NCBI GenBank assembly: GCA_043810925.1
Contig: JBDRNT010000171.1
Coordinates: 1-64,000, forward strand
DNA: 64,000 nucleotides
Direction: 5' to 3'
Source: Candidatus Eiseniibacteriota bacterium
Lineage (GTDB): Bacteria > Arandabacterota > Arandabacteria > Arandabacterales > Arandabacteraceae
Below, in pieces: positions 14,501 through 34,975 of the stretch. The notes under the pieces were generated by a model, which had not been told where the DNA came from, did no database searches, and was given only the letters and a program-made list of their open reading frames with translations. The translations under genes were made by a program, and so were the position numbers. Position 1 is the stretch's first letter. The number at the start of each line of letters is the position of its first letter.

Positions 14501-14515
14501 GCCCGGGGGAGAACG

Positions 14516-15118: not shown

Positions 15119-15147
15119 CCCCGTGAATCAACCAACAAACCATAGCG

Positions 15148-15206: not shown

Positions 15207-15207
15207 A

Positions 15208-15224: not shown

Positions 15225-15235
15225 AAGGTGATCTC

Positions 15236-17110: not shown

Positions 17111-17118
17111 AAACCCCA

Positions 17119-17250
17119 ATGGTCATCGAAAAGTCATTGCTGATCAGACTGCTGATAGCAGGCTGGACTCTCATGATAAGCGCATTTTACTACCTGCAGT
17201 TTAAGTCCATGCTGAACATGCTTCTCAACAAGGTACTGGAAACCATCTGA
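17119..17250 (+). CDS. 43-aa single-TM small protein (not in the ORF track)
   Basis: MVIEKSLLIRLLIAGWTLMISAFYYLQFKSMLNMLLNKVLETI*; fills the asnB to GT-C gap and overlaps the next start (TGATG). Confidence 0.7.
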   Translation: MVIEKSLLIRLLIAGWTLMISAFYYLQFKSMLNMLLNKVLETI

Positions 17251-19106
17251 TGATCGAACTGGCTTGTCTCGTTCTCATCTATCTATTGGCGACTGGTCTG
17301 GGAAAGATGACGCTACGCTACTTCGGCGTTTCCTTTGAGACCTGGAAGGAGGAGTCCATCTTTTCGATCGGTCTGGGACTGGGGCTTCTGGCATATGCCG
17401 TGTTTGCCGTCGGTATCCTGGGCATTCTTTACACCTGGGCGGTCTGTGCGGTGCTTGTGGTTGCTGCGATCGCATGCCGGCGGGAGCTAAAGCATACGGT
17501 AATGAGGTTGCCCGGACTCTTTCGCAACCTCAAACCGGGGACGCGTCCCAGGGTCATCCTTGCCTTGACCGCCGTAGTGGTGGTATGCATAGCGATGAAC
17601 TCCCTGGGAACACTGGCGCCCGTCAGCTCGATGGACGCCCTGGCTTACCACTTCGCAGCCCCCAAGGTCTACATTGAGCACCACAAGATTATCGAGACCC
17701 CCTGGTTACACTGGCATTCCTACCAGCCGTTCACGGTGCAAATGCTCTTTACCCTTGGGATGTTGCTCCGAAACGCCGCGCTGGGGTCGCTGTTTCATTA
17801 TGGATTCGGGGTTCTCATTGCCGCAGGGATCGCGGTGTTCTGTCTCCGTTATTTTCCGGGAAACACCTCCCTCCTGTCGGTGGCGATCTTCTATACAACC
17901 GGTCTCATGACCTGGCAGGCCACATCCGGTTTCATAGATCTGGGGCTTGCGTTTTTCGCGTTTCTCGCGGTCTTCGGATTCCTCCGGTGGCTGGAGACAA
18001 GCCACCGGCACTGGTTGGCGTTGTCGGGCGTGTTCGCCGGCTTTGCCGCGGGATGCAAGACTACGGGTGGAGTGGTCGTCGTTGCACTGGCGGCCATGCT
18101 CATCTGCCGTCTGATGCTTGTGAAAGGAAGATCTGTCTCAAGCGCAGTCAGGGATGTGGGGGTCTTTGTGAGCCTGGCAATCCTGATAGCCTCGCCATGG
18201 TACATCAAGAGCCTCGTTCAAACCGGTAATCCTGTTTTTCCTTTTCTCTATACCATCTTCGGGGGCAAGAACTGGGACGGCGAGGCGTCCGCAACACTTC
18301 GAGGGGCCCTGAGGGTCTACGGCTTCGGCTACGGTATCAAGGAGTTGATCATGGCACCCTGGAACATCACGCTCCGGGGGGAGTCGTTTGACTATGGGCA
18401 GTTGGTCGGACCGCTCTATCTTTCCTTCATACCGCTGTCGCTTCTTTATATCAGGAAGAGCATGGTTATCAGGACCCTGCTGATCTTCTGCGGTCTCGTC
18501 TTCTGCGTCTGGTTCAGCCAGTCCCAGCAGATCAGATTTCTGCTTCCCGTCCTGCCGTTCTTGAGCGTGATAGCGGCATGGGTGATTGTGGATCTCCTCG
18601 GAAAGGGTCGATTCCTCAAGTACACCGTGGCTGTGGTTGTCGGGTTGTTCCTGCTCTTCGGTACGGGGCTCAATCTGATTTACAACTCACAATTCCTGCC
18701 CGTGGTCTTCGGTCTTCAACCGGAAGATGAGTTCCTTGCCGAGAAGACCTGGTTCTACGAGGACACGAAGTATATCAACGAGAACATCCCTGAAGACAGC
18801 AAGGTGCTGGCGGATCTGCGCGGAACCTACTACCTGGACAGGGACTTCGTCCCATGGGGCTATGTCGAGGTCGGGGAGGATCCACGGGCGGCACTCGAGG
18901 CGCTTGGACGACACGGCATTACCCACATCTTTGTAGCCCACCAGAATCGCCTGAGGCAACTGGATGTGATCCGCGATAACCTCACGCTGATACGCACAAG
19001 TCAAACGACTGTTCTCGGTCACCGGACGTTCTGGCGGGATCCGAAAGCGGTAACCACTCATCTCTTTGAGGTCAAGAGAACAGCACATCACGCGATGGGA
19101 GCATAA
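17250..19106 (+). CDS. ArnT/PMT-like (GT-C) polyprenol-phosphate-dependent glycosyltransferase
   Basis: About 13 TMs; DALAYHFAAPK, IDLG, AAGCKTTG, PWYIKS..QTGNPVFP and QIRFLLP motifs. Confidence 0.75.
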   Translation: MIELACLVLIYLLATGLGKMTLRYFGVSFETWKEESIFSIGLGLGLLAYAVFAVGILGILYTWAVCAVLVVAAIACRRELKHTVMRLPGLFRNLKPGTRPRVILALTAVVVVCIAMNSLGTLAPVSSMDALAYHFAAPKVYIEHHKIIETPWLHWHSYQPFTVQMLFTLGMLLRNAALGSLFHYGFGVLIAAGIAVFCLRYFPGNTSLLSVAIFYTTGLMTWQATSGFIDLGLAFFAFLAVFGFLRWLETSHRHWLALSGVFAGFAAGCKTTGGVVVVALAAMLICRLMLVKGRSVSSAVRDVGVFVSLAILIASPWYIKSLVQTGNPVFPFLYTIFGGKNWDGEASATLRGALRVYGFGYGIKELIMAPWNITLRGESFDYGQLVGPLYLSFIPLSLLYIRKSMVIRTLLIFCGLVFCVWFSQSQQIRFLLPVLPFLSVIAAWVIVDLLGKGRFLKYTVAVVVGLFLLFGTGLNLIYNSQFLPVVFGLQPEDEFLAEKTWFYEDTKYINENIPEDSKVLADLRGTYYLDRDFVPWGYVEVGEDPRAALEALGRHGITHIFVAHQNRLRQLDVIRDNLTLIRTSQTTVLGHRTFWRDPKAVTTHLFEVKRTAHHAMGA

Positions 19107-19110
19107 ACCA

Positions 19111-20115
19111 ATGGCAACACAAGTTCTGGTAACAGGCGGAGCGGGTTACCTCGGATCGGTGCTCTGCGAACATCTGCTGGCCACGGGTTACAAGGTCACG
19201 GTGGTCGACAACCTGATGTATGGACAACACACCTTGTTCCATCTTTGCGCGAATCCGCATTTTGAGTTTGTACCCGGTGATGCCCGTGACGAGAAGTTGC
19301 TTTCGGGACTCGTGAAGAACGCTGACGTGCTTATTCCTCTGGCGGCGGTCGTGGGCGCGACGGCATGCGAGCGGGACCCCTGGCTGGCCATGGCGGTCAA
19401 TCTCGAGGCCATCCGGATGCTCAACAGGCTGCGTAGCCCGGACCAGCTGGTAGTCTTCCCGACGACCAACAGTGGTTACGGAACCCAGACAAGCGATGTG
19501 TTCTGTACCGAAGACACCCCGCTGGAACCCATCTCGCTTTACGGACGGACCAAAGTCGACGCGGAGGCTGATCTCCTGGGATCGCCCGGGGTGATTACCC
19601 TGCGTCTTGCTACCGTGTTCGGTATGTCTCCCCGGATGCGTCTGGATCTTCTGGTTAACCACTTCGTTTACGCGGCGGTCACCGATGGTTACATCGTTAT
19701 CTTCGAGCGGGAGTTCAAACGGAACTACATACACATACGCGACGTCGCAGAATGCTTCGTACACTGTATAGAACACGCCGACCGGATGGTGGGACGTCCG
19801 TACAATGCCGGTCTCGATGCGGCGAATCTCTCCAAGGAGGAGCTGGCACTCAAGATCAAACAGTATGTCCCGGACTTCTACACCCACTTCTCCGAAGTCG
19901 GAAGCGATCCCGACAAGCGCAACTACATCGTTTCGAACCAGAGGCTTCGTGAAGCCGGGTTCGAGGCACGGCGTTCGCTGGATGAGGGGATCAAGGAACT
20001 CCTGAAGGGGTACCGGATGATGGGACGCGCTCCCTTTAAGAACACCGGATGCGTGCGGGACATCCCCCGCCATGAATGCCTGATGTCAACAACCGGAGGT
20101 TCTCAGGGTGGTTGA
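19111..20115 (+). CDS. SDR resembling Campylobacter Cj1427 (GDP-heptose C4-dehydrogenase, WcaG)
   Basis: TGGAGYLG, IPLAAVVGA, FPTTNSGYG, YGRTK, RLATVFGMSPRMRLDLLVN, RNYIHIRDV and DPDKRNYIVSN match the Cj1427 signature as recalled; start 19111. Confidence 0.75.
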   Translation: MATQVLVTGGAGYLGSVLCEHLLATGYKVTVVDNLMYGQHTLFHLCANPHFEFVPGDARDEKLLSGLVKNADVLIPLAAVVGATACERDPWLAMAVNLEAIRMLNRLRSPDQLVVFPTTNSGYGTQTSDVFCTEDTPLEPISLYGRTKVDAEADLLGSPGVITLRLATVFGMSPRMRLDLLVNHFVYAAVTDGYIVIFEREFKRNYIHIRDVAECFVHCIEHADRMVGRPYNAGLDAANLSKEELALKIKQYVPDFYTHFSEVGSDPDKRNYIVSNQRLREAGFEARRSLDEGIKELLKGYRMMGRAPFKNTGCVRDIPRHECLMSTTGGSQGG

Positions 20116-20119
20116 GAAT

Positions 20120-20857
20120 ATGACCGGCTTGAGCGCCGCGATACTGGCAGGTGGGCTGGGGTCGAGGCTGAGCCCCGTCCTCGCCGGCCGCCAGAAGGTC
20201 ATGGCCGAGTTCGGGGGACAGCCATTTCTCGCTTACCTCCTGGACCAGTTGGCCGGTGTTGGTGTGCCCGATGTGGTGCTCTGCACGGGTCATCTGGGCG
20301 AGCAGGTGCGCGCTGCCCTTGGCGAGACCCACGGTCCATTACATCTTACGTATTCACAGGAAGCATCTCCCAGGGGTACGGCAGGCGCGTTGCGGAGGGC
20401 TCTGCCCCTTCTGAAGTCGGATACAGTGCTTGTCATGAATGGCGACTCTTTCTGCGAAGCGGACCTCGGGGCCTTCTGGACGTGGCATTGCGCACGGGAG
20501 GCGGAGGCCTCATTGCTGCTCGCGAGGGTGCCGGATACCGGGCGTTACGGCCGGGTCAGGGTGGATACCGACGGATTCATGCTCAGTTTCGGCGAGAAAG
20601 ACGGGACAACCGGACCCGGATGGATCAATGCCGGGATCTACCTGATCAGCCGCAGCCTGCTTGTCGACATACCGCCGGATCAGATGGTGTCCCTGGAACG
20701 GGCGGTGTTTCCCACCTGGATCGGCCGGCGTCTCTACGGCTACAGGTGCGAGGGCCGTTTTCTGGATATCGGTACGCCGGAGACATACGCGGCGGCAGAA
20801 CGTTTTCTTGAACCATACGCTCCGACATGCAGCGTAGGAAGGGAATGTAATCCATGA
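20120..20857 (+). CDS. hddC: D-glycero-D-manno-heptose 1-phosphate guanylyltransferase
   Basis: LAGGLGSRL, GTAGAL, NGDSF, INAGIY, FLDIGTPE; adjacent to gmhA/hddA. Confidence 0.85.
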   Translation: MTGLSAAILAGGLGSRLSPVLAGRQKVMAEFGGQPFLAYLLDQLAGVGVPDVVLCTGHLGEQVRAALGETHGPLHLTYSQEASPRGTAGALRRALPLLKSDTVLVMNGDSFCEADLGAFWTWHCAREAEASLLLARVPDTGRYGRVRVDTDGFMLSFGEKDGTTGPGWINAGIYLISRSLLVDIPPDQMVSLERAVFPTWIGRRLYGYRCEGRFLDIGTPETYAAAERFLEPYAPTCSVGRECNP

Positions 20858-21474
20858 GAGTAGGTACTGATTATCTCAGCAGGGTGCGTCAGCACCTGTT
20901 CGAAAGTGCGGAGGTCAAGTGCCAGATCGCCGAGACGTGCGTGGAGTCGATTGCGGCCGCGGCCAACCTGCTGGCCGACACATACCGGTCCGGCGGAAAG
21001 GTGCTCCTGTGCGGTAACGGCGGGAGCGCGGCCGATTGCCAGCACATGGCGGCCGAACTGGTCAACCGGCTGACGTCGGACTTCGAACGGCCCGGCCTTC
21101 CGGCGATTGCACTCACGACCGATACGTCCTTCATAACAGCATACGCCAACGATTGCATGTTTGAGGGCGTGTTCGAAAGACAGGTGCAGGCACTTGGAAA
21201 CCCGGTAGATACCCTGGTCGCCATAAGCACGAGTGGGAACTCGGCTAATGTGCTGCGCGCCATCACGGCAGCACAGTCGGCCAATATGCGAACCATCGCC
21301 ATCACCGGCACCGGCGGACGTCTCAATCGCGTCGTGGATCTGGCCATCTCCGTTCCGAGTACAAACGCACAGTGCATCCAGGAGGCCCATCTGGCGATCG
21401 AGCATATGCTGTGTCACCTGGTTGAGCGAATTCTCTTCGGTGACGAGGCCCACGGGGAGGATCCGGCTCTGTGA
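20854..21474 (+). CDS. gmhA: Sedoheptulose-7-phosphate isomerase
   Basis: CGNGGSAADCQHMAAEL, ISTSGNS, IQEAHLAIEH. Confidence 0.93.
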   Translation: MRVGTDYLSRVRQHLFESAEVKCQIAETCVESIAAAANLLADTYRSGGKVLLCGNGGSAADCQHMAAELVNRLTSDFERPGLPAIALTTDTSFITAYANDCMFEGVFERQVQALGNPVDTLVAISTSGNSANVLRAITAAQSANMRTIAITGTGGRLNRVVDLAISVPSTNAQCIQEAHLAIEHMLCHLVERILFGDEAHGEDPAL

Positions 21475-22541
21475 TTATAAGCAGGACACCCTTCCGGATT
21501 TCCTTCTTCGGCGGAGGAACGGATTACCCGGCGTGGTACCGGAAACGGGGAGGTGCCGTGCTGGCAACCACAATCGACAAGTATTGCTATCTCACGTGCC
21601 GATATCTTCCCCCGTTCTTCGAGCACCGGTTCCGTGTCGTCTATTCCGAGAATGAAAGATGCAAGGAGATCGATGACATCAGCCATCCGGCCGTCCGCCA
21701 TGTAATGCGGTATCTCGGCATGGAGCGTGGCGTGGAAATCCATCATGACGGCGACCTGCCTGCCAGGAGTGGAATGGGATCGAGTTCCTCCTTCACCGTG
21801 GGGCTCCTTCATGCCCTCTACGCGCTAAAAGGCTATATGCCCACAAGGTTGCAGCTGGCAATGGAGAGCATTTTCATCGAGCAGGAACTTCTGAAGGAGA
21901 CTGTCGGATCCCAGGACCAAGTGCTGGCGGCCTATGGCGGTTTCAATCACATATCCTTTCTCGCAACCGGCGAGATCTCGATCAAGCCGATCACCATCGC
22001 CAGGGAGCGTATCACTGAACTCAACTCGCATCTCATGTTGTTTTATACGGGGATCAAACGCACAGCCTCGAATCTGGCGGAAACCTACGTCAACGATATC
22101 GAGCGCAGGGAACGCCAGCTCGAAAAGATCGGCGACATGGTGGGCCAGGGCATCGCGATCCTAAACAGCACTCAGGATATCAACCACTTCGGTGAACTGC
22201 TGCATGAGACCTGGCAGGCCAAACGCAGCCTCGGCAAGAAGATATCGAACTCCTGTGTTGATGAGATCTACGATCAGGCAATTTCCGCGGGAGCCAAGGG
22301 CGGGAAGCTTACAGGGGCTGGCGGCGGCGGATTCGCCCTCCTCTTCGTCCCTCCTTCCCGCCGGGATAGCGTGAAGGCGAGATTGAACAAGCTGATCCAC
22401 GTACCGTTCAAGTTTGAATGCGCGGGAAGCCAGATCATCTTCTTCGATCTCGAACAGGACTACTCAGCGGAAGAGAAGATCCGCGCCGGCCAGTCGATCG
22501 AGGCCTTTAGAGAGCTCAGCCACATACAGGAGGACGCGTGA
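21471..22541 (+). CDS. hddA: Heptose-7-phosphate 1-kinase (GHMP family)
   Basis: RTPFRISFFGGGTDYP, DLPARSGMGSSSSF, GSQDQ, KLTGAGGGGF. Confidence 0.88.
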   Translation: MIISRTPFRISFFGGGTDYPAWYRKRGGAVLATTIDKYCYLTCRYLPPFFEHRFRVVYSENERCKEIDDISHPAVRHVMRYLGMERGVEIHHDGDLPARSGMGSSSSFTVGLLHALYALKGYMPTRLQLAMESIFIEQELLKETVGSQDQVLAAYGGFNHISFLATGEISIKPITIARERITELNSHLMLFYTGIKRTASNLAETYVNDIERRERQLEKIGDMVGQGIAILNSTQDINHFGELLHETWQAKRSLGKKISNSCVDEIYDQAISAGAKGGKLTGAGGGGFALLFVPPSRRDSVKARLNKLIHVPFKFECAGSQIIFFDLEQDYSAEEKIRAGQSIEAFRELSHIQEDA

Positions 22542-23539
22542 ACGATCATCTGCCCATAACCCGCGTACTTATCACGGGGATCGCCGGATCGGGCGGGAGC
22601 TATCTCGCCGAGCACATCGTCAACGATCACCCGGATGTCGAAGTCCATGGAATATCGCGGTGGCACAGCACGACGTCGAGCGATAACCTTGGCGCGATCC
22701 GTGACAGGATAACGGTGCACGAGGCCGACCTTCTCGATTTCGGATCGGTGCTTGGGGCGGTCCGCGCGGCAAAACCCGATGCTGTGTTCCACCTGGCAGC
22801 TCACGCTAACGTTCATGCTTCATTCGTGACCCCGAACACTGTACTCAGCAATAACATCATCGGGACGAGCAACCTCCTCGAGGCGATCAGACTGGAAGAC
22901 CTCGATCCCGTTATCCAGATCTGCAGTACTTCCGAGGTATACGGCCAGGTTGACCCGGAGAACGTCCCGATAAAGGAAGATACACCGATGCAACCGGCCA
23001 GCCCCTACGCCGTTTCAAAGGTCGCCCAGGACCAGCTCGGAAGGGTCTATTTCACGAGCTACAAGATGCGCATCATCCGCACACGGATGTTTGCATACCT
23101 CAATCCCCGGCGTACCGACCTGTTTGCGACATCGTTCGCAAGACAGGTGGCATGGATTGAGCGCGGACTCCAGCAGGAGCTTGTCCACGGCAACCTCGAT
23201 TCGGTCCGCACCCTGATTGATGTTCGCGACGCGATGCGAGCTTACTGGGAGGCCCTTCTCCACTGCCGGTGGGGAGAGGCCTACAACATCGGGGGTACGA
23301 CCACTATGACGGTCGGTGAGTTCCTGGAACGCCTGACCGCCATGAGCAGAGTACCGGTCCCGACACGCTGTGATCCCCGGTTGCTTCGCCCGGCGGATGT
23401 GACATTGCAGATACCCTGCACCGATAAGTTCGTGCGTGAGACAGGGTGGCAACCTGTCTACACCTTCGAGCAAAGCCTGGCGAACTTGCTTGACTACTGG
23501 AGGAAACAGGCGGATGCGGCAGCCGAGGCCGCTCTCTAA
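22538..23539 (+). CDS. GDP-sugar (probably heptose) 4,6-dehydratase, Gmd-like
   Basis: LITGIAGSGGSYLAE, HLAAHANVHASF, STSEVYG, PYAVSK, GNLDSVRTLIDVRD, LLRPAD. Confidence 0.75.
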   Translation: MNDHLPITRVLITGIAGSGGSYLAEHIVNDHPDVEVHGISRWHSTTSSDNLGAIRDRITVHEADLLDFGSVLGAVRAAKPDAVFHLAAHANVHASFVTPNTVLSNNIIGTSNLLEAIRLEDLDPVIQICSTSEVYGQVDPENVPIKEDTPMQPASPYAVSKVAQDQLGRVYFTSYKMRIIRTRMFAYLNPRRTDLFATSFARQVAWIERGLQQELVHGNLDSVRTLIDVRDAMRAYWEALLHCRWGEAYNIGGTTTMTVGEFLERLTAMSRVPVPTRCDPRLLRPADVTLQIPCTDKFVRETGWQPVYTFEQSLANLLDYWRKQADAAAEAAL

Positions 23540-23544
23540 GAGGT

Positions 23545-24507
23545 ATGAGAAACATGGCACTTCCGAAGATTGCACAGTTCTATCGCTCGCTCTACAGGAT
23601 TCGACGCGTGGAAGAGGAAATCATCAGGATCTACCCGACGGACAGGGTCAAGAGCCCCGTACACCTTTCGATCGGGCAGGAGGCGGTTTCCGTAGGAGTG
23701 TGTGAAGCCCTGCGCCAGGACGACGTGGTTTTCGGCACCTACCGGGGGCACGCTCTCTATCTGGCCAAGGGCGGCGATCTGAAGAAGATGATGGCCGAGT
23801 TGTACGGGAAGGTCACCGGCTGCGCCCGGGGCAAGGCAGGGTCGATGCACCTTGTCGATACCGCTTCCGGAATCATGGGGACATCTGCAATCGTTTCAAC
23901 CACCATTCCCCAGTCGGTCGGTTATGGTTACGCCCTGAAGGTTCAGGGCAGGGACTCGCTTGTGGCAAGTTTTTTCGGCGACGGGGCAGTGGATGAGGGG
24001 GCATTTCACGAAAGCATGAACTTTGCCGCCCTTAAACACGTGCCCGTCGTCTTCATTTGTGAGAACAACCTCTACGCCATTCACTCGCACTACCTCAACA
24101 GACAGCCGAAGGACAACATCTGCGAGCGTGTGCGCACGTACGGCATGCCCGCAGAGAGGATCGAGGGAAACGACGTCGTCAGGATCTACGACCGTGTAAA
24201 GGACGCTGCGAAGAGGATTCGCAGTGGAGCCTCCGGCCCCATGTTCTTTGAGTGTATGACCTACCGCTGGAGGGAGCACGTCGGGCCCGGCGAAGACTGG
24301 GATCTTGGCTACCGCGGTGAGGACGAGGCTAAGCAGTGGATCGAAGGAGACCAGGTCGACCGCCTGGGGGCAATGCTTGATCCCGAGGCGAGACGGCGTA
24401 TGGAGGCGGAGGTGGAGACGGAGATCCGTGAGGCTATTGAGTTTGCGGAACGGAGTCCATTCCCGGATGCAGAGGAACTCTACACAGACGTTTTCAGGGA
24501 GTGTTGA
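23545..24507 (+). CDS. TPP-dependent dehydrogenase E1 alpha-like subunit
   Basis: HLSIGQEA, GKAGSMH, TPP motif GDGAVDEG...ENN, TYRWREH. Confidence 0.9.
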   Translation: MRNMALPKIAQFYRSLYRIRRVEEEIIRIYPTDRVKSPVHLSIGQEAVSVGVCEALRQDDVVFGTYRGHALYLAKGGDLKKMMAELYGKVTGCARGKAGSMHLVDTASGIMGTSAIVSTTIPQSVGYGYALKVQGRDSLVASFFGDGAVDEGAFHESMNFAALKHVPVVFICENNLYAIHSHYLNRQPKDNICERVRTYGMPAERIEGNDVVRIYDRVKDAAKRIRSGASGPMFFECMTYRWREHVGPGEDWDLGYRGEDEAKQWIEGDQVDRLGAMLDPEARRRMEAEVETEIREAIEFAERSPFPDAEELYTDVFREC

Positions 24508-24508
24508 G

Positions 24509-25558
24509 ATGGAACGCACACTGACTTATGCCGATGCGATTCGCGAGGCGACCGAGCAGGAGATGGCGCGTGACCCTCGGGTGATTGTCATGGGTCTGGG
24601 TGTCGATGACCCAAAGGGCATCTACGGTACCACCCTGGGGCTTAGAGACGAGTTCGGACCCGAACGCGTCTTCGATACCCCGCTTTCTGAGGATGCGATG
24701 ACCGGCGTCGCCATCGGTGCTTCGCTCGCCGGACTCCGGCCGATCCATGTTCACCAGCGTATGGATTTCCTCCTGCTCGCCATGAACCAACTTGTCAACA
24801 TCGCCGCCAAGACAAGGTACATGTTTGCGGGGGCCGTATCGGTTCCGATCGTGGTCCGCGCAATCATCGGCAGAAGCTGGGGACAGGGTGCCCAGCACTC
24901 CCAGGCACTCCATTCATTGTTCATGCATGTCCCCGGTATCAAGATAGTCGCACCGACAACCCCCTACGATGCCAAGGGCTGTCTGATCAGGAGCATCAGG
25001 GAGCATGACCCGGTGATCTTTGTCGAGCACAGACTCCTGCACAAGTACCAGGAAGGTTATGTCGCCGAAGGTTCATACGAGGTCCCCCTTGGGAAGGCCC
25101 GCGTCCTCGTAGAGGGCAATGATCTTACCATCGTTGGGATTTCCCATATGGCGGTTGAATGCTTGAGGGCCCAGCGGTACCTCGAGGATGTCGGGCTGAG
25201 TGCCGAGGTGATCGATCCCGTTTCTTTGTGCCCGCTCGACATGGACACGATAGCAGCATCGGTACGCAAGACCGGAAGAATGCTTGTCGTGGACAACGGG
25301 TGGATCACCTGCGGGGCCGGCACCGAGATTCTCGCACAGGTGGTCGAACGCTTTCAGGGCCACCTGGATGTGCGCGTCCAGAGGATGGGGTTTGAGAGCG
25401 TGACCTGCCCAACCACGAGGAATCTGGAAACCGAGTTCTACCCGAATGCACAGACGATAGCGTCAGGAGCATATGCGCTGGTTCACGACAATCATGAGTC
25501 GTGGACGCCTGCGCATGAGGAAGCTCCGGAGATCCTTCAATTCAAGGGGCCGTTCTGA
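24509..25558 (+). CDS. TPP-dependent dehydrogenase E1 beta / transketolase C-terminal-like subunit
   Basis: RVFDTPLSE, GQGAQHSQ, DPVIFVEHR, EVIDP..L.PLD; start 24509 right after the alpha stop. Confidence 0.9.
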   Translation: MERTLTYADAIREATEQEMARDPRVIVMGLGVDDPKGIYGTTLGLRDEFGPERVFDTPLSEDAMTGVAIGASLAGLRPIHVHQRMDFLLLAMNQLVNIAAKTRYMFAGAVSVPIVVRAIIGRSWGQGAQHSQALHSLFMHVPGIKIVAPTTPYDAKGCLIRSIREHDPVIFVEHRLLHKYQEGYVAEGSYEVPLGKARVLVEGNDLTIVGISHMAVECLRAQRYLEDVGLSAEVIDPVSLCPLDMDTIAASVRKTGRMLVVDNGWITCGAGTEILAQVVERFQGHLDVRVQRMGFESVTCPTTRNLETEFYPNAQTIASGAYALVHDNHESWTPAHEEAPEILQFKGPF

Positions 25559-26811
25559 TGAAACAGCAAGACATGAAGTCCGGCGGCAGCGCCACCGCAA
25601 CCAGGGAGATCGCCGTCCCGTTCGGGACGATGTCGGTCCCCAGAAGAGCGAAGCAGATCATAGCCGAGGTCCTGACGACCCGGCGAATCTCGAGTGGCAA
25701 GTACGTCCGTGAATTCGAAAACAGATTCGCCGAGTTGCTTGGCGTCAAAGAAGCCGTCGCTGTAAGCAGCGGTACAGACGCAGACGTTCTTGCCCTGGCC
25801 GTGCTTCACGATTACGGGGCACAGCGGGGCGACGAGATCATCGTTCCCGCACTGTCCTTTGTGGCTTCGGGTAATGCCGTGTTCCACGCCGGTTTCACAC
25901 CGGTCTTCGTCGACATTGATTTCAACACCCTGAATATCGACCCATCCGGGATTGAAGCAGCAGTGACGGACAAGACACGTGCGATAATGCCGGTTCACCT
26001 GATGGGTAAACCCGCGGAGATGGATCTTATCAGGGACGTCGCCCGGAAGCATGATCTTCGCGTGATCGAGGATGCCGCAGAGGCTCACGGCGCTATTTAC
26101 AAGGGAGAGCCGGTCGGCACCCTTGGCGACATGGGAGCTTTCAGCCTCTACCTCGCACATATCATCACCACAGGCGAGGGCGGCGTTGTCGTAACCGACA
26201 ACGAGGATTATGCGCAGATCCTTCGCTCGCTTCGCTCTCACGGACGTGCCTGCAAGTGCAGGCAATGCACGATAAATACAACCTCGGGATACTGCCCGAA
26301 GCGGTTTCAGGGCGATCAAGGCGAAGACATGAGGTTCGTGTTTGAGCGTATCGGCTACTCGGCGAAGATGAACGAACTCGAAGCCGCACTTGGATTGGCC
26401 AACCTCGATATCTACGACGAGATTCTGAGCAGACGCCGCCGGAATCTCCAGTATGTACTTGAGCGATTCAAGCAGTTCGACCCTTATCTGACAACGATCG
26501 AGGAAGGGCCGGACGAGAAGATCGGCCCCCACGCCATCCCGATTGTCGTCGGGCGCGGGGCGTCATTTACACGTGAAGCGCTTGCCAACTGTCTTGAAGA
26601 GCACGGTATCGAGACACGCACCCTGTTCGCATCCATGCCGACCCAGTGCGCCGGATTCGCCCATCTTGGTTACCGGCCGGGGCAGTTTCCCAATGCCGAG
26701 TACATAGGCATGCACGGTATCCACGTCGGGGTTCACCAGGATCTTGGACGGGAAGAGATGGACCACGTGCTGGGGACAATCGGGCGATTCCTCGAGGACA
26801 ACCAGAATTGA
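25558..26811 (+). CDS. DegT/DnrJ-fold PMP-dependent 3-dehydratase (DdhC/E1- or ColD-like)
   Basis: SSGTDA, IEDAAEAHG; His at the catalytic Lys position (FSLYLAHIITTGEGG); Cys cluster GRACKCRQC...YCPKRF. Confidence 0.75.
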   Translation: MKQQDMKSGGSATATREIAVPFGTMSVPRRAKQIIAEVLTTRRISSGKYVREFENRFAELLGVKEAVAVSSGTDADVLALAVLHDYGAQRGDEIIVPALSFVASGNAVFHAGFTPVFVDIDFNTLNIDPSGIEAAVTDKTRAIMPVHLMGKPAEMDLIRDVARKHDLRVIEDAAEAHGAIYKGEPVGTLGDMGAFSLYLAHIITTGEGGVVVTDNEDYAQILRSLRSHGRACKCRQCTINTTSGYCPKRFQGDQGEDMRFVFERIGYSAKMNELEAALGLANLDIYDEILSRRRRNLQYVLERFKQFDPYLTTIEEGPDEKIGPHAIPIVVGRGASFTREALANCLEEHGIETRTLFASMPTQCAGFAHLGYRPGQFPNAEYIGMHGIHVGVHQDLGREEMDHVLGTIGRFLEDNQN

Positions 26812-26825
26812 AAGCAGCAGGCGGA

Positions 26826-26876
26826 GCCTTTCGGTATGCAAGCGAATGCCTCTCTTGAGCAAGCGGACCGAAGGGC
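26826..26876 (+). other. Intergenic stem-loop inside the operon
   Basis: GCCTTTCGGT (26826-26835) / ACCGAAGGGC (26867-26876). Confidence 0.4.
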
Positions 26877-26909
26877 AGGCCGGCAACGGTCGGATTAAGG
26901 AGGACTGAG

Positions 26910-27911
26910 ATGTACGAAGGCATGAAGGTACTGGTCACAGGCGGCACGGGGATGATTGGAGTCGAAGTGGTGAAGTTACTGCTGGAGCGGGGAGCAGGCG
27001 TCCGCGTCGCGTCGTTGGACGACCCTTCGCGCGCACCTCGAGATGTTGAGTTCATACGCGGCAATCTCACGGACTGGGAATTCTGTCAGAAGATCACAAG
27101 AGGCATGGACTGCGTCTTTCACCTGGCAGGAATAAAGGGATCCGTCGGCATCGGGAACTCCAAAGCAGCAAGTTTCTTCGTTCCGCATCTTCTGATGAAC
27201 ACTCTGATGATGGAAGCAGCCCGACAGGCGGGGGCGGATCGTTACCTCTATACCAGCAGTATAGCCGTTTACCATCCCACCGATGTCTTTGTGGAGGACA
27301 GGGCATGGGACGGACCACCCCATCAGACGGACAGGTATGGTGCCTGGGCCAAGCGGATGGGAGAGCTGCAGGCGGAGGCCTACAAGGAAGAGTACGGCTG
27401 GGACAGGATCGCCATAGTGCGGCCCGCCAACGTGTACGGACCCTACGACAATTTCGATTCTAAGACTGCGATGGTCGTGCCGGCGGTGATCAGCCGCGTG
27501 GCCGCGGGTGAAAACCCGCTGGTTGTATGGGGTGACGGTTCGGCAATACGGGATTTCATTTATGCCCGGGACTGCGCGGAGGGCATGTTGCTGGCCATGG
27601 AGAAGGGGGCGAATTGCACACCGGTCAACCTGGGTAGCGGCAAAGGGGCGTCGATCAGGGAGTTGGTGGAAGCGGTTGTGGCCGCCTTCGACAACCCGCC
27701 CGAGGTGAAATGGGATACAAGCAAGCCGGCAGGCCAGAGCGTTCGTCTGATGGATATGACCAGGGCCCGCGAGATGCTGGGTTTCAAAGCGCGCACATCG
27801 CTTAAGCAGGGCGTACAGGAGACCGTAGCATGGTACCTGGCAAACACCGAACTTGCAGGCAACAGGTTCAATGTGTTTCACGAGTCAGACTTCATGGCGG
27901 TCAAGAGATAG
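26910..27911 (+). CDS. NAD-dependent epimerase/reductase (Fcl/GME-like extended SDR)
   Basis: TGGTGMIG, RPANVYGPYDNF, VWGDGSAIRDFIY; atypical YGAWAK. Confidence 0.85.
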   Translation: MYEGMKVLVTGGTGMIGVEVVKLLLERGAGVRVASLDDPSRAPRDVEFIRGNLTDWEFCQKITRGMDCVFHLAGIKGSVGIGNSKAASFFVPHLLMNTLMMEAARQAGADRYLYTSSIAVYHPTDVFVEDRAWDGPPHQTDRYGAWAKRMGELQAEAYKEEYGWDRIAIVRPANVYGPYDNFDSKTAMVVPAVISRVAAGENPLVVWGDGSAIRDFIYARDCAEGMLLAMEKGANCTPVNLGSGKGASIRELVEAVVAAFDNPPEVKWDTSKPAGQSVRLMDMTRAREMLGFKARTSLKQGVQETVAWYLANTELAGNRFNVFHESDFMAVKR

Positions 27912-27913
27912 CA

Positions 27914-28699
27914 GTGAGAATCCTCACGAGCGGCGCGCTGAGCGGTCTCGGCAAACATCTGTACGAAAGGTTCGGCGGTCTTGCCTGGACCAGGCAACTG
28001 CCGGCCCACGACCGCGAGGAGATCAAGCGTGAAGGCGTTGATGTTGTGTTCCACTGTGCGGCGACTTCACGCCGGCCGGTCACCTCGGATGATCTCTATG
28101 AGTACATCGCGGACAACGTACTGCTCACGGAGGAACTGGTCTCGGTTCCCCATCGGAAGTTCGTATTCGTATCTTCCGTTGATGTCTATCCGTGCGGGCA
28201 TGAGCCCCGCTCTGAAAACAGTGTGATCGATGTGGACACTGTGAGAGGGATCTACGGCAAGACAAAACTGATGTCTGAAGCAATAGTCCAGCGGCACTGT
28301 CCCGATCACCTGATCCTGCGATGTGTCGCTCTATTAGGCGAACACGCACGTAAGAACAGCCTGACACGGATTCTGGACGACGACTCCTGCACCCTGACTC
28401 TCTCAGGAGATTCGCAGTTCAACTACGTTCTCCACGAGGATGTTTCAGAGTTCATAGAGTCTGCGGTGAAGAACGATGTCCGGGGGATATACAATGTTGC
28501 GTCAAGTGAGAACGTGACGCTCTCAGAAGTCGTCGACATCTTCAACAGACGAGTCGATTTCGGAGCGTACCGTTACGCCATCAGCGATGTTGACAACAAG
28601 CGGATAGCGTCGATCTTCCCCGCGTTCAGAAAGACTTCCAAAGAGGTCGTAGCCCGTTTCGCGCGCGAGCGTGCCGGAAGGAGGCAAAGATGCAGTTAA
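27914..28699 (+). CDS. Short NAD-dependent epimerase/reductase (SDR)
   Basis: RILTSGALSGLG, FVSSVDVY, YGKTK; GTG start at 27914. Confidence 0.75.
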   Translation: MRILTSGALSGLGKHLYERFGGLAWTRQLPAHDREEIKREGVDVVFHCAATSRRPVTSDDLYEYIADNVLLTEELVSVPHRKFVFVSSVDVYPCGHEPRSENSVIDVDTVRGIYGKTKLMSEAIVQRHCPDHLILRCVALLGEHARKNSLTRILDDDSCTLTLSGDSQFNYVLHEDVSEFIESAVKNDVRGIYNVASSENVTLSEVVDIFNRRVDFGAYRYAISDVDNKRIASIFPAFRKTSKEVVARFARERAGRRQRCS

Positions 28700-29685
28700 A
28701 AAACCAAGCCGTGCTGGTAACAGGTGCTACCGGTCTGGTGGGCAGCAATCTGATCAAGCGCCTGCTCGACGAGGGAGCGAATGTCCGTGCCACAGTACAC
28801 AGCAAACCGCCTGTCATCGACGATGACAGGATCGACTATGTCCGTTCGGACCTTACGAGAGACGAGGATTGCCGGGCGGTCGTTGAGGGCCAGCGCTTCG
28901 TCTTTATGTGTGCGGCAAGCACTTCCGGTGCGGCCACGATTGCCGCCACTCCGATGGTGCACGTGGTGCCCAACGTTGTGATGAACACGCAGATGCTCGA
29001 GGCAGCATACCAGGCAGGCGTTGAGAAGTTCTTGTGGTTGAGCAGCACGACGGGTTATCCGCCATCCAGTTACCGGCCGGTCAGCGAAGACGACATGTTC
29101 GACGGTGAACCGTTCGAGAAGTACTTCTTCGTGGGCTGGATGAAGCGGTTTACGGAAGTACTCTGCCGTATGTACGGGGAGAAACTGCCGAAGCCGATGA
29201 CCACAATCGCACTCCGGCCGACCAACATCTACGGCCCCAATGATGACTTCGAACCTGCAACCTCACACGTCACGGCGGCCTTGATCAGGAAAGTCGTGGA
29301 GCGTCAGAGTCCGATCGAGGTCTGGGGCACGGGTGACGACATCCGTGACGTGATCTATATCGATGACATGGTGGAAGCCATGGTCAAGGCCATGGAGAAG
29401 ATCGAGTCGTACACGGCGATCAACATCGGGCTGGGCAAAGCCTACAGCGTCAAGGAAATCCTCAGTACCTTACTCGAGCAAGACGGTTACCCGGACGCGA
29501 AGGTCGTGTTCAACTCGTCAAAGCCGACGATGATACCTGTCCGCTTGATTGACACGAGTAAGGCCGAGACCCTATTGGGTTTCAAGGCAAAGACAGATCT
29601 TGTTGAAGGTATCCAGAAGACCCTTGAGTGGTTCCGGGACGCCAAGAGTGTCCCAAGACCGTGCGGCGCATTGAGGGAGAAGTAA
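28690..29685 (+). CDS. NAD-dependent epimerase/reductase (Fcl-like extended SDR)
   Basis: TGATGLVG, RPTNIYGPNDDF, SHV, VWGTGDDIRD; atypical VGWMK. Confidence 0.85.
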   Translation: MQLKNQAVLVTGATGLVGSNLIKRLLDEGANVRATVHSKPPVIDDDRIDYVRSDLTRDEDCRAVVEGQRFVFMCAASTSGAATIAATPMVHVVPNVVMNTQMLEAAYQAGVEKFLWLSSTTGYPPSSYRPVSEDDMFDGEPFEKYFFVGWMKRFTEVLCRMYGEKLPKPMTTIALRPTNIYGPNDDFEPATSHVTAALIRKVVERQSPIEVWGTGDDIRDVIYIDDMVEAMVKAMEKIESYTAINIGLGKAYSVKEILSTLLEQDGYPDAKVVFNSSKPTMIPVRLIDTSKAETLLGFKAKTDLVEGIQKTLEWFRDAKSVPRPCGALREK

Positions 29686-29686
29686 A

Positions 29687-31273
29687 ATGAGTGGGCCCAA
29701 CCTTGCCGTCCACCACCGCCCCGCGAGTGGGATATCCGTGTCACCACAAGCTGACAAACCTGAAGTCCTGCTGATCCAGCCTGGTGAAGAGACAGACTAC
29801 TATCTGATCCCGATGGGTTTGCTGTACGTGGCGCAGGCGCTGAGAGAGGCCGGTGTGGAGGTCACGATATTCGACATGAGAAAGAGCCGCATCACGGACC
29901 TACCGCTGCGCCGCTACCTTTTCGCCGGAATCACCATGATGACCGGGAAGATGATAAAGCATGGCCTGAGGGCCGCAAGGATGATCAGAGAGTACGATCC
30001 CCGGATTCCCATCGTTCTGGGGGGCGTGCACCCATCCATGTTGCCGGAGCAAACACTGCGGCATGAACTGGCTGATATCGTCGTTGTAGGTGAGGGTGAG
30101 GAGACCGCCAAAGAGATTGCGAGGAGCTTGCTTGGTGACGGAGATCTGTCGGAGATCAAAGGCATAGGCTACAAAGGCAACGGGAACCCCATCACCATGA
30201 ACCCGCGCAGAGAATTCATCGATCTGAACGAAACCAGTATGGATTTGCCCCACGATCTACTGGGAATCGATTTCCAAGGGGCCCGCGCATTTCCCATAAA
30301 TACCAGCCGGGGATGCCCTTACCGCTGTGGGTTCTGTTATAACCAGTCCTTCAACAAAAGGAGTTTTCGCTACAAGAGTGCCACGCGAATCGTCGATGAA
30401 GTTGAATACTACATCAAGAAGTACGATATCCCTTCATTCAGCTTCGGCTTTGAAGACGAGTTCTTCAGCAAACCCAGCAGGGTCCGCGAGATGGCCGACC
30501 TGATTCTGAGCAGAGACTTGAAGATCACCTGGGGATCGTTCTGCCGTTTTGACTCGTTTGAGAAAATCGACGATCACTCCTTGAAGTTGCTGAAGAGATC
30601 GGGGTGCAAATCCCTGTTCTTCGGAGCAGAGTCGGGCTCACAGAGGATCCTCGATGAGGTCATCAAAAAAGACATCACCACTGAACAGGTGGTACGCGGG
30701 GTTGAGAGGCTCAAGAGGGCGGATATCTTCCATCTCGTGAGCTTCATGTGCTGCCTACCGACGGAAACTCAAGAGGACCTTGATGCCACCTTCGCGCTCA
30801 TCGACAGAATAGCCGAGAACAACTCGAAACTGTTCATCAATGGAATCTTTGTCTACTTCCCAATCCCCGGCACACCTCTGTTCGACATGGTAAAGAACGG
30901 ATACGACCTCGAGTTTCCCGATTGCCTGGAAGGGTGGGCGGAATACGAGATGCCCAGTGCTTCGATCTCGCGCATTCCCTGGCACCCGGCCAAGTATGCC
31001 AGGCGATGCCGGAACCTCTACCAGATGTCGCTTTATCCCTTTCACCACGATATCACATCCTACGGCGCGTACAGGCAGTTGACCACTACCCACACCAGCT
31101 ACCGCCGCTCCTACGTCCATTACCTGATGGCCCGGATGCAACGGTGGCGCTGGAAGAACAGGAATCTTGAATTCCCCCTGGAACTCTTGATGTCCGAGAA
31201 GATCAGGGAGATGACTCCTGCACTGAGGAGGGGCTACCGCATGGCCAAGAAGGTCCGTGCACACTTAAGATAA
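29687..31273 (+). CDS. Cobalamin-binding radical SAM enzyme (class B methyltransferase-like)
   Basis: PMGLLYVA, LGGVHPS, VVGEGE B12 domain; SRGCPYRCGFC; GAESGSQRIL. Confidence 0.9.
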   Translation: MSGPNLAVHHRPASGISVSPQADKPEVLLIQPGEETDYYLIPMGLLYVAQALREAGVEVTIFDMRKSRITDLPLRRYLFAGITMMTGKMIKHGLRAARMIREYDPRIPIVLGGVHPSMLPEQTLRHELADIVVVGEGEETAKEIARSLLGDGDLSEIKGIGYKGNGNPITMNPRREFIDLNETSMDLPHDLLGIDFQGARAFPINTSRGCPYRCGFCYNQSFNKRSFRYKSATRIVDEVEYYIKKYDIPSFSFGFEDEFFSKPSRVREMADLILSRDLKITWGSFCRFDSFEKIDDHSLKLLKRSGCKSLFFGAESGSQRILDEVIKKDITTEQVVRGVERLKRADIFHLVSFMCCLPTETQEDLDATFALIDRIAENNSKLFINGIFVYFPIPGTPLFDMVKNGYDLEFPDCLEGWAEYEMPSASISRIPWHPAKYARRCRNLYQMSLYPFHHDITSYGAYRQLTTTHTSYRRSYVHYLMARMQRWRWKNRNLEFPLELLMSEKIREMTPALRRGYRMAKKVRAHLR

Positions 31274-31276
31274 ACC

Positions 31277-32716
31277 ATGAACTTACCAAGGAAAATAGCC
31301 GCCAACAGCGGTGTCCTGCTCGCAGGCAGGATCGCTACGAGCGCGATCTCGCTCCTCGTGAGCATCTGGCTGATCCGGTATCTCGGAAGCATCGGATATG
31401 GCAGGTACAGCGTGGTCTTCGCATATCTCACGTTCTTCCGGATACTGACCGCTCTCGGTGTCGATCCCATCATCATTAGGGAGATCTCCAAGGGCAATGC
31501 GAGGAAAAACGTGCTGATCGGTAATGCGATTCTCATGAAGATGAGCTTTTCTCTCATCGCAGTTCTGAGTGCGTGTGTGGTAGCACAGTTCATGGGCTAC
31601 GGCAGCGAGATAAAGCTGCTTATCTATGTCGCCTCATTCAGCATGCTTTTGAGTTTCGGGCGCGTGTATGTGGACATCTTCCAGGCCAACCTGAAGATCG
31701 TTTGGTATACGATAGCCGAACTGGCCGTCACACTGCTTTTCTCAGGGCTTACGTTGATGGTCATCGCCATGAAGGGCTCGCTGCTTCACTTCGTGCTATT
31801 GCAGACGGTCAGGATCGTCCCTCTCACCGTTGCCTATTTCCACTTCTCGAGGAGGATCGCCGACAGCCGCCCGGTCTTCACACTGGATTTCAGTGTCTGG
31901 AAAAGTCTGACCAGGAGTGCCATGCCGATTTTCCTATCGGGGCTCTTCGGTTCGATAAACTTGAGAATCGATCAGGTCATGCTGTTCAACATGTTGGGTG
32001 AGAAGAACCTCGGGTTCTACTCCTCGATTGTGCGAATAACCGAAAGCGTGAATCTCATGCCCGGTGTGTTGATGGTCTCCATATTCCCTGTGCTCTCCAC
32101 GGCATTCGTGCAATCGAATGAACGATTCTCAAAGATCTATAATCTCTCCTTCAAGTACATGGGCATGATCATCCTTCCTGTTGCGTTCGGAACGACGCTG
32201 CTGTCCGGAAGGCTGATCACCATCGTTTACGGAACCGAGTTTCTCCCTGCCGCCACCGCGTTCGCAATCCTGATATGGTCCGCCGTATTCGTGTTCCTGG
32301 GGACCGTGAATTTCAACATTCTGGTCGCTTCGGATCTGCAGAGATACATTCTCTTGTTCAGTGCACTCGGCGCTTCCTCAAATGTCGTATTGAATCTGAT
32401 CTTGATACCCAGGTACGGCATTGTCGGAGCGTCTCTGGCAACGGTGATTTCATACAGTGTTGTGGGTCTTGTCCCCCAGTACCTGATCAAGAAGACGCGA
32501 CAGATCACAAAGGACTATATCAAAGCAACGTTAAGACCACTTCTCTGCTCCGCTGTTATGAGCATCGGCATACTCTGTTTCTATTCTCTAAACACATTTG
32601 TCCTGATAGCACTCAGTGCGGCAGTCTACTTCGCTTTGCTCCTGCTCACAAAAGCTCTTGATGAGCACGATTTCCGGTATTTCAGGCAGATTGCGCGAAG
32701 GCGCTCGGAGACCTAG
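31277..32716 (+). CDS. wzx: Polysaccharide flippase
   Basis: 12-14 TMs; RYLG...YG, RIDQVML, GFYS, LNLILIPRYGIVGASLAT. Confidence 0.9.
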   Translation: MNLPRKIAANSGVLLAGRIATSAISLLVSIWLIRYLGSIGYGRYSVVFAYLTFFRILTALGVDPIIIREISKGNARKNVLIGNAILMKMSFSLIAVLSACVVAQFMGYGSEIKLLIYVASFSMLLSFGRVYVDIFQANLKIVWYTIAELAVTLLFSGLTLMVIAMKGSLLHFVLLQTVRIVPLTVAYFHFSRRIADSRPVFTLDFSVWKSLTRSAMPIFLSGLFGSINLRIDQVMLFNMLGEKNLGFYSSIVRITESVNLMPGVLMVSIFPVLSTAFVQSNERFSKIYNLSFKYMGMIILPVAFGTTLLSGRLITIVYGTEFLPAATAFAILIWSAVFVFLGTVNFNILVASDLQRYILLFSALGASSNVVLNLILIPRYGIVGASLATVISYSVVGLVPQYLIKKTRQITKDYIKATLRPLLCSAVMSIGILCFYSLNTFVLIALSAAVYFALLLLTKALDEHDFRYFRQIARRRSET

Positions 32717-32728
32717 GATGGGAGAGTT

Positions 32729-34953: not shown

Positions 34954-34975
34954 ACAATATCAACGGAGGGTTAGC

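Follow-up and report, generated by a model that had tools for sequence, protein, structure and literature searches.

What sugar would be made by a gene cluster that joins heptose activation to deoxygenation, carbon–carbon bond formation and radical chemistry? The question is raised by a stretch of DNA from Candidatus Eiseniibacteriota bacterium (contig JBDRNT010000171.1 of assembly GCA_043810925.1, positions 1 to 64,000; this whole stretch of 64,000 nucleotides is called the window here), which contains twelve contiguous genes, g01 to g12, between positions 19111 and 31273. Heptose-derived surface sugars shape the recognition of bacteria by phages, hosts and antibodies, and branched higher sugars are both rare and chemically prized. 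An earlier reading of this DNA (the original prediction) had proposed that the twelve genes direct synthesis of a branched-chain deoxy-heptose on a GDP scaffold. The explanation that we favor, and in which, taken as a whole, we have moderate confidence, is that these genes form one operon within a Wzx-dependent surface-polysaccharide locus, that they belong to a widespread family of GDP-heptose tailoring cassettes, and that the product would be a 3,6-dideoxy- (perhaps 3-deoxy-) 4-C-(1-hydroxyethyl or acetyl)-heptose, possibly C-methylated.

The open reading frames (ORFs) of the window were typed by Pfam and NCBIfam profile searches and compared with sequences from the Protein Data Bank (PDB). 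By these domain and family scans, and by comparison with solved structures, the whole of the claimed twelve-gene set is present, contiguous and on one strand (the forward one), and the proposed gene identities hold. The ATG of g01 (position 19111) lies 4 nt past the end of the preceding gene, and the junctions between the twelve genes range from -10 to +5 nt, the exception being a 98-nt gap between g08 and g09. Because the same gene set recurs in other phyla, as described below, this arrangement is more than a chance juxtaposition.

The deoxygenation step is assigned to g08 (25558..26811, + strand), which is predicted to encode an E1/RfbH-type sugar C3-dehydratase of the DegT fold that depends on pyridoxamine 5'-phosphate (PMP). 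Its His201 aligns with the Schiff-base lysine of perosamine synthetase, and a four-cysteine loop, C232-x-C234-xx-C237-x8-C246, corresponds in the alignment to the Cys-rich loop of 3BCX, the Yersinia E1 dehydrase, a loop that the ColD structures do not have. When 80 metagenome loci were fetched with g08, 75 of them yielded near-full-length orthologues for alignment and five short matches were left out; a histidine occupies the Schiff-base column in the g08 of the window and in 75/75 orthologues, and Cys232, Cys234, Cys237 and Cys246 are kept in 74 of these 75. Assignment to the ColD type was ruled out by the Cys loop, and the features of g08 point to an E1/RfbH-like PMP enzyme with a probable iron-sulfur cluster. 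The original prediction, which had named a His-type DegT-fold enzyme, was right about the histidine, and the type of the enzyme can now be given as E1/RfbH with a Cys loop. ColD-type enzymes, with an SHH motif and no loop, replace g08 in several of the related loci considered below (L011-L017, L187-L189 and those of Azospirillum), and in E. coli, Yersinia and C. jejuni it is the ColD type that is described as used for GDP-sugars (PMC10440746). Unlike the CDP-hexose E1 group, which has a dedicated E3 and a CDP-hexose substrate, g08 stands in a GDP-heptose context with no ferredoxin-reductase-like gene among the window ORFs scanned; the enzyme is predicted to work like E1 without belonging to that group.

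The genes for the two subunits of a thiamin diphosphate (ThDP)-dependent enzyme stand between g05 and g08 (junctions of 5, 1 and -1 nt). The E1 alpha subunit (E1_dh, PF00676, with a GDG-X26-NN ThDP motif) is encoded by g06 (23545..24507, + strand) and the E1 beta subunit (PF02779, Transket_pyr, and PF02780, Transketolase_C) by g07 (24509..25558, + strand, with an alternative GTG start at 24503); g07-like genes also adjoin g06-like genes in related loci. A scan of 50 ORFs of the window gave no E2 or E3 gene, and a search that was positive in 10/14 control genomes gave no PF00198 E2 domain in this 91.7%-complete genome. At E 1e-40, moreover, g06 stands alone in the genome as an E1-alpha-like gene. 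These results argue that g06/g07 are not part of a pyruvate or acetoin dehydrogenase complex. The pair of TPP-dependent E1 subunits named by the original prediction is therefore present, and the yersiniose-like logic attached to it fits, but the enzyme is an alpha/beta pair of the pyruvate dehydrogenase (PDH) E1 type and not YerE-like, as no single-chain, acetolactate-synthase-type ThDP domain of the YerE kind was seen among the 50 window ORFs scanned. In being an E2-less alpha plus beta pair with a ThDP motif, a place in a nucleotide-sugar operon and conserved linkage, g06/g07 show the pattern of a sugar C-branching pair. PDH-E1-like pairs of this kind put a pyruvate-derived two-carbon chain on C4 of 4-keto deoxysugars in actinomycete antibiotic pathways, and no role other than C-branching is known to be described for E2-less E1 pairs that stand in sugar clusters (PMC4802897).

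The first five genes of the cassette bear on the predicted substrate of these enzymes. Activation of the heptose is assigned to g02, g03 and g04, all on the + strand. A sugar-1-phosphate transferase (PF00483) that is HddC-like and probably a guanylyltransferase is encoded by g02 (20108..20857), for which the two top NCBIfam matches are both guanylyltransferases, the Rv mannose-1-phosphate enzyme with 153.8 bits (cut-off 440) and HddC with 115.5 bits (cut-off 300). The product of g03 (20854..21474) is a GmhA-like sedoheptulose-7-phosphate isomerase with a SIS_2 domain, which gives 212 bits with NF010546 (cut-off 276), 183.5 bits with TIGR00441 (cut-off 209.45) and a full-length match to phosphoheptose isomerase (E 6e-63). 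An HddA-like heptose-7-phosphate kinase of the GHMP family is encoded by g04 (21471..22541), with NF049969 HddA as its top NCBIfam match (E 7.4e-41, under the cut-off); among its four best PDB matches, 3K85 and 4N3O are titled heptose kinases and 4USK and 4USM sugar kinase only, the latter two being presumably the heptokinase WcbL, a name that their PDB titles do not carry.

Two short-chain dehydrogenase/reductase (SDR) genes would bring the activated heptose into the pathway. The best PDB match of g01 (19111..20115, + strand) is 6VO6 (E 3.8e-108, 365 bits, residues 16-326, a span of 311 residues), which is titled 'putative sugar-nucleotide epimerase/dehydratase' and which we take to be Cj1427, the GDP-heptose C4-dehydrogenase, although the search output does not give that name. 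Orthologues of g01 that are 50-76% identical occur within heptose cassettes, and this Cj1427-like protein is predicted to oxidize GDP-heptose at C4. The second gene, g05 (22538..23539, + strand), is predicted to encode a protein like the GDP-heptose 4,6-dehydratases, its best PDB match being 7US5 (heptose 4,6-dehydratase, 1.1e-55). It has STSE and PRR(T/S)D motifs in common with 7US5 and E. coli GMD, and two Rmd structures read GPGQ at the second of these sites; an Rmd-type reductase, suggested by the second-best match 2PK3, was ruled out by the PRR and STSE motifs. Because cassettes exist with only a g05-like gene (L123, L125, L126 and L133) or only a Cj1427-like gene (L011, L012, L111 and L118), g01 and g05 are read as alternative entries that would lead to 6-deoxy and 6-hydroxy sugars, respectively in the cases of g05 and g01. 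The HS:3 and HS:4 clusters of C. jejuni also hold both enzymes, which were concluded to be alternative entries (PMC10680097), and it is possible that a cassette with both the C4-dehydrogenase and the 4,6-dehydratase yields 6-hydroxy as well as 6-deoxy products.

Does this combination of genes recur, as would be expected of a pathway? Related loci (designated L plus a number) were mapped by tblastn, ORFs within 8 kb of g08 were clustered, and ten cluster representatives were annotated with Pfam; greedy ORF picking in GC-rich loci gave antisense artefacts, so the tblastn maps were used, and shadow ORFs in the clusters were set aside on coordinates. A first sample comprised 80 reference-genome loci fetched by similarity to E1 alpha and not selected for sugar context. 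Seven of these (L011-L017) have a full-length E1 alpha at 53-62% identity, and their hosts are a gammaproteobacterium, a member of the Lentisphaerales, a member of the Planctomycetaceae, a member of the Terriglobia, Candidatus Velthaea and two alphaproteobacteria. HddA is found in 7/7 of them and a Cj1427-like gene in 5/7, and in every one a His-type DegT gene of the ColD kind (SHH/AHH motif) adjoins E1 alpha/beta. The co-occurrence check called for by the original prediction was thus run, and heptose genes, E1 alpha/beta and a His-type DegT enzyme do recur together, with HddA and the His-type enzyme in all seven of these E1-alpha loci. An eighth locus, L077, has a partial E1 alpha (56%) cut by the contig end together with GmhA- and HddC-like genes and a Lys-type DegT gene, with no HddA in the available piece of sequence. 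Loci with E1 alpha at or below 47% identity have Lys-type aminotransferases or no sugar genes. In L020, L033, L037 and L048 (E1 alpha 41-44%), E1 pairs stand beside two tandem Lys-type DegT genes (HPLKNLN motif) with no HddA, apparently a different ThDP-dependent amino-sugar pathway. The locus nearest to the gene set of the window is in an alphaproteobacterial metagenome-assembled genome (L017:10001-16400; g05 48%, g08 48%, g09 57%), and its genes are fragmented by frameshifts or sequencing errors.

The second sample was chosen through g08 and consists of 34 metagenome loci, each 15 kb or longer, in which a g08 orthologue is present at 57-73% identity. HddA is present in 27 of these, HddC in 22, a Cj1427-like gene in 21, a g05-like gene in six and a B12 radical S-adenosylmethionine (SAM) match in 29; at least one of the two entry enzymes occurs in 26/34. 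When all 80 g08 loci are counted, many of them short, the figures are 50 for HddA, 32 for HddC, 28 for the Cj1427-like gene, ten for the g05-like gene and 18 for E1 alpha or beta, and HddA is the most frequent partner of g08. A two-subunit ThDP enzyme lies within 8 kb of g08 in 30/34 long loci, as E1 alpha/beta in 13 and as a split transketolase in 17, never both. The split transketolase (PF00456 plus PF02779/PF02780) that takes the place of the E1 pair, found at L100:5205-7075 and in 16 other g08 loci, points to a pathway variant in which the two carbons come from another donor. L123 and L126 together carry E1 alpha/beta (62-66%), g05 (50-51%), g09 (59%), g10 (50-54%), a g11-like gene, HddA and g08. 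Shorter or very divergent E1-like pairs are found in the same position at L124:3647-4748 and also in L187, L190 and L120 (26-31% identity; ~170 aa each in L124).

These counts bear on two other ways of reading the cassette. The tailoring enzymes might act on GDP-mannose or another hexose, with the heptose genes serving a separate residue of the polymer, since g05, g09 and g11 also resemble enzymes of GDP-mannose pathways and 7/34 long g08 loci are without HddA. However, the best solved relatives of g01 and g05 are GDP-heptose enzymes, HddA is the commonest partner of g08 in the long loci as in the full set of 80, and for the chemistry of GDP-hexoses the window has its own Gmd and, 23 kb downstream, an fcl-like gene, so we regard a hexose substrate as very improbable. 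The GDP-heptose scaffold of the original prediction fits these observations, as the nearest solved relative of each of four tailoring enzymes is an enzyme of GDP-sugars or of GDP-heptose and as HddA accompanies g08 in most long loci.

It is also conceivable, though unlikely, that the E1 pair does not act on a nucleotide sugar at all and instead supplies a pyruvate-derived substituent, or an acetaldehyde- or acetoin-type metabolite, for decoration, so that the cassette would make only unbranched 3,6-dideoxy or 3-deoxy heptoses, like that of C. jejuni HS:5. GDP-3,6-dideoxy-heptoses need just a 4,6-dehydratase, a C3-dehydratase, an epimerase and a reductase (PMC10440746), and the locus has many decorating enzymes, with five methyltransferases and a carbamoyltransferase. 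Against this stand the embedding of the ThDP pair between g05 and g08, its company with the dehydratase in 30/34 long loci, the presence of a His-type dehydratase beside the E1 pair in 7/7 loci, and the description of E2-less E1 pairs in sugar clusters only as C-branching enzymes (PMC4802897). Because C3-dehydratases of two unrelated kinds, and likewise ThDP enzymes of two kinds, interchange within one cassette, a 3-deoxy-4-keto-heptose is the probable acceptor of ThDP-dependent carbon–carbon bond formation; the yersiniose-like order of steps that had been proposed agrees with the same counts.

The remaining four genes of the cassette, all on the + strand, would complete the sugar. The first, g09 (26910..27911), encodes a GDP-L-fucose-synthase (GFS)-like SDR (PDB GFS matches at ~7e-37), a candidate C4 reductase and/or epimerase with orthologues 55-59% identical in L011, L012, L017, L123 and L126, and g11 (28690..29685) encodes a second such SDR (PDB GFS matches at 3e-39). 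Between them, g10 (27914..28699) encodes a short, divergent, RmlD-like SDR with a partial PF01370 match, a candidate branch ketoreductase. Its start is the GTG at 27914, not 27830, and it retains a Gly-rich motif and YxxxK; its single PDB match is a dTDP-4-dehydrorhamnose reductase (1.2e-5), and orthologues at 50-54% occur in L123 and L126. The last gene, g12 (29687..31273), encodes a B12-binding (class B) radical SAM enzyme with an N-terminal B12-binding domain (PF02310), a radical SAM core (PF04055) and CX3CX2C at residue 210. Its solved relatives are 9CCB, OxsB, TokK and AprD4, and its NCBIfam relatives ApyD, BchE, PhpK and HpnJ, none of which reaches the family cut-off and among which methylases and non-methylases score alike; its reaction could be a rearrangement rather than methylation. 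Metagenome relatives of g12 are 45-53% identical and none is functionally named. Orthologues (44-49%) were found in 5/301 Elusimicrobiota genomes. In four of these five, the neighbors of the orthologue are HddA, a Cj1427-like gene, a g05-like gene and a His enzyme of the ColD type that has no Cys loop; E1 alpha/beta at 40-43% is also present at one of these four loci, and the fifth orthologue has a g05-like gene at the contig edge. Because these orthologues sit in heptose cassettes, g12 is taken as part of the heptose cassette and not as a passenger of the surrounding polysaccharide locus.

The presence of g12 leads to a further possibility, namely that the two-carbon unit is not a simple branch and that ring closure or rearrangement of the skeleton by the B12 radical SAM enzyme gives a carbocyclic or bicyclic higher-carbon sugar, for example a 4,8-cyclo-nonose like caryose, the sugar of Trinickia (Burkholderia) caryophylli. 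A B12 radical SAM enzyme is a near-constant partner of g08 (29/34 long loci, with an adjacent cluster, of a subfamily other than that of g12, in 26/34), and the NCBIfam matches of g12 include the ring-forming BchE and HpnJ with scores near those of methylases. In addition, one source describes the biosynthetic origin of caryose as unknown and implicates radical SAM enzymes in the formation of other sugar carbocycles (PMC9092360). To judge by the name given there (4,8-cyclo-3,9-dideoxy-nonose), caryose would formally be a 3-deoxy-heptose plus a 4-C-acetyl group and a C7-C8 bond, and its carbon count, its 3-deoxy position and its tertiary C4 agree with a heptose plus C2. By contrast, most characterized class B radical SAM enzymes are methylases (PMC11659888), the best solved relatives of g12 include the methylase TokK as well as OxsB, and g05 predicts a 6-deoxy sugar when caryose retains O6. 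We consider ring closure quite unlikely on this evidence. There is the same slim chance that cassettes of this family provide the missing biosynthetic route to caryose and other carbocyclic or ring-fused higher-carbon sugars, in which case the ThDP pair would place an acetyl group on C4 of a 3-deoxy-4-keto-heptose and the radical SAM enzyme would join C7 to the acetyl carbonyl to form a cyclopentane-fused sugar and the window version, with its 4,6-dehydratase, would make a 6-deoxy relative.

Returning to the branched heptose, the favored explanation can be set out as a series of steps. GmhA/HddA/HddC-like enzymes would activate the sugar to GDP-heptose, by chemistry that is established in C. 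jejuni and assigned here by homology. By the alternative entries, g05 would then produce GDP-6-deoxy-4-keto-heptose and g01 the 6-hydroxy 4-keto sugar, after which g08 would remove the C3 hydroxyl to give a 3-deoxy-4-keto-heptose. The E2-less g06/g07 enzyme would decarboxylate pyruvate and add the two-carbon unit to the C4 carbonyl; g09, g10 and g11 would reduce the acetyl branch and/or epimerize and reduce the sugar; and g12 would modify it by radical chemistry, most simply C-methylation. The product would be transferred to a repeat unit and flipped by the adjacent Wzx. Within this scheme we infer the C4 branch site, the 3,6-dideoxy pattern, the C-methylation, what each of the three SDRs does and which reaction g12 catalyzes. 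The idea that a C7-methylated 3,6-dideoxy branched heptose could be erwiniose was considered and dropped, as the YerE-like ErwE builds erwiniose on a CDP-3,6-dideoxy-4-keto-hexose with a C5 keto acid as the other substrate (PMC9306805).

Several observations weigh against this explanation. The NCBIfam matches of g02-g04 are all under their curated cut-offs, so the nucleotide and the anomer are assigned by inference only, and the cassette has neither GmhB nor a cupin epimerase. GmhB, which had been listed in brackets by the original prediction, is represented elsewhere in the genome by a GmhB-like ORF on another contig (C104; 130.3 bits against a cut-off of 149.6). E1-type dehydrases need an electron donor (E3), and none was seen among the window ORFs scanned or the annotated frequent neighbor clusters. 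HddA is missing from seven and a ThDP pair from four of the 34 long g08 loci; moreover, these loci were selected via g08 and share descent, and what the counts show is the habit of a gene family and not independent events. The E1 alpha gene was found in 0/12 same-family genomes (60 relatives searched), which makes the cassette accessory, and it was probably acquired by the host lineage. Lastly, no biochemical or glycan-structure report was found for any member of the family.

The cassette lies within a polysaccharide locus of ~48 kb (11441..59310, + strand), as defined by a Pfam scan of the 38 flanking ORFs. Immediately behind g12, after a gap of 3 nt, is a gene for a Wzx-type flippase (31277..32716, + strand; PF01943/PF13440) with 12 hydrophobic segments. 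By Pfam, the locus also contains Wza-like, Wzc-like and NusG-like genes, AsnB, about ten glycosyltransferases, Gmd and a priming sugar transferase, together with decorating enzymes that include the five class I methyltransferases and the carbamoyltransferase. The methyltransferases and carbamoyltransferase, along with a heparinase II/III-like protein, are scattered among the glycosyltransferases at 37169-47461 and 52517-54274 of the window, and the polymer is probably heavily decorated. The NusG-like gene (14516-15118), at the head of the locus behind the Wzc-like gene, may encode a locus-specific antiterminator. Two ORFs without a Pfam match, 17250-19106 (618 aa) and 47461-48894 (477 aa), have ~11 and ~9 hydrophobic segments, and either could be the Wzy polymerase or a different membrane enzyme of this locus. 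Behind Gmd, the fcl-like (GDP-fucose synthase) gene at 55389-56275 is split over two frames near 55.57 kb, with its N-terminal part in one frame and a 230-aa ORF (55583-56275) in the other, the result of either a frameshifted gene or an assembly error.

A compact core of the cassette is also found in cultured bacteria, on plasmids of Azospirillum lipoferum 4B and A. ramasamyi, where its neighbors are GT41/TPR, WavE and GT2 genes. The core of A. lipoferum 4B consists of a Cj1427-like gene (56%), E1 alpha (55%), E1 beta (60%), a ColD-type His enzyme and an ORF for a HAD hydrolase that also includes an HddC-like stretch, the E1 alpha/beta genes lying at around 42-48 kb of plasmid AZO_p6 (NC_016588.1); A. 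ramasamyi has the same gene order by annotation, with E1 alpha at 54%, and HddA was not found within the 29 kb of A. lipoferum examined. The genes that adjoin the core (L192, plasmid AZO_p6 of A. lipoferum 4B, 31.5-60.4 kb; L193) include GT41 (O-GlcNAc-transferase-like), TPR, sulfotransferase and methylthioadenosine-salvage genes, which hints at a glycoprotein or sulfated glycan as the target. No account of an unusual sugar derived from a heptose in Azospirillum turned up in the literature searched.

If the favored explanation is correct, a cassette that is very common among uncultured bacteria (at least eight named lineages here) makes 3-deoxy carbon-branched heptoses for which there is as yet no structural report. 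It would extend the iron-sulfur E1-type 3-dehydrase to GDP-heptose, E2-less PDH-E1 (or split transketolase) carboligases beyond antibiotic pathways, and B12 radical SAM enzymes to nucleotide heptoses. The cultured Azospirillum strains that carry the core make the question experimentally approachable.

How much of this pathway has been described before? GDP-3,6-dideoxy-heptose is made by C. jejuni HS:5 (PMC10440746), and Cj1427 together with the HS:5 C3-dehydratase gives GDP-3-deoxy-4-keto-heptose in vitro (PMC10680097). Searches of the full-text literature, with supplements and most subscription journals outside their reach, found no paper on a ThDP or B12 radical SAM step on GDP-heptose, nor on an E1-type dehydrase there. 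An NMR review lists erwiniose, caryophyllose-like sugars, 3-C-methyl-mannose and bradyrhizose among branched monosaccharides, and the part of it available names no heptose-derived one (PMC9912281). The novelty claimed by the original prediction, which knew of no characterized GDP-heptose-based pathway of this kind, must therefore be narrowed: the route up to GDP-3,6-dideoxy-4-keto-heptose is published for C. jejuni HS:5 (PMC10440746), and it is the ThDP and radical SAM steps on GDP-heptose that were not found in print.

The capsular pathways of C. jejuni are accordingly a close point of comparison, as they have in common with the window cassette, as predicted here, GmhA/HddA/HddC-like activation, a C4-dehydrogenase, a 4,6-dehydratase, C3 deoxygenation of a 4-keto-heptose and GFS-like reductases (PMC10680097; PMC10440746), and in HS:3/HS:4 the presence of both entry enzymes (PMC10680097). 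They differ in that the C3-dehydratases of C. jejuni resemble ColD, with 62-67% identity to GDP-sugar enzymes of E. coli O55 and Yersinia (PMC10440746), whereas g08 is of the E1/RfbH type, and in that C. jejuni has GmhB and a cupin epimerase, which the window cassette is without. The window cassette adds the ThDP pair and the B12 radical SAM enzyme; the words 'thiamine' and 'branched' are absent from the main text of PMC10680097.

The synthesis of yersiniose A in Yersinia pseudotuberculosis has the same logic of 4,6-dehydration, C3 deoxygenation by E1, ThDP-dependent transfer of a pyruvate-derived C2 unit to C4, and reduction (PMC9306805), and its E1 has the active-site histidine and the Cys loop in common with g08. 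However, that pathway uses a CDP-hexose, an E3, the single-chain YerE and YerF (PMC9306805), whereas the window offers a GDP-heptose context, a two-subunit enzyme of the PDH-E1 type, no E3 among its scanned ORFs, and in addition a C4-dehydrogenase and a B12 radical SAM enzyme. The likeness to Plm8/Plm9 of paulomycin and AviB1/AviB2 of avilamycin synthesis lies in an E2-less alpha/beta ThDP pair within a nucleotide-sugar cluster, for which C4 branching was proposed or genetically shown; those pairs act on dTDP-hexoses of Streptomyces antibiotics, in contrast to the GDP-heptose and surface polysaccharide predicted here (PMC4802897). The Streptomyces homologues of E1 alpha among the sequences compared, which may or may not include these named enzymes, are only 41-51% identical. 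Finally, g12 is like other class B radical SAM enzymes in its B12-binding domain, radical SAM core and CX3CX2C motif, and would differ from them in acting on a nucleotide heptose.

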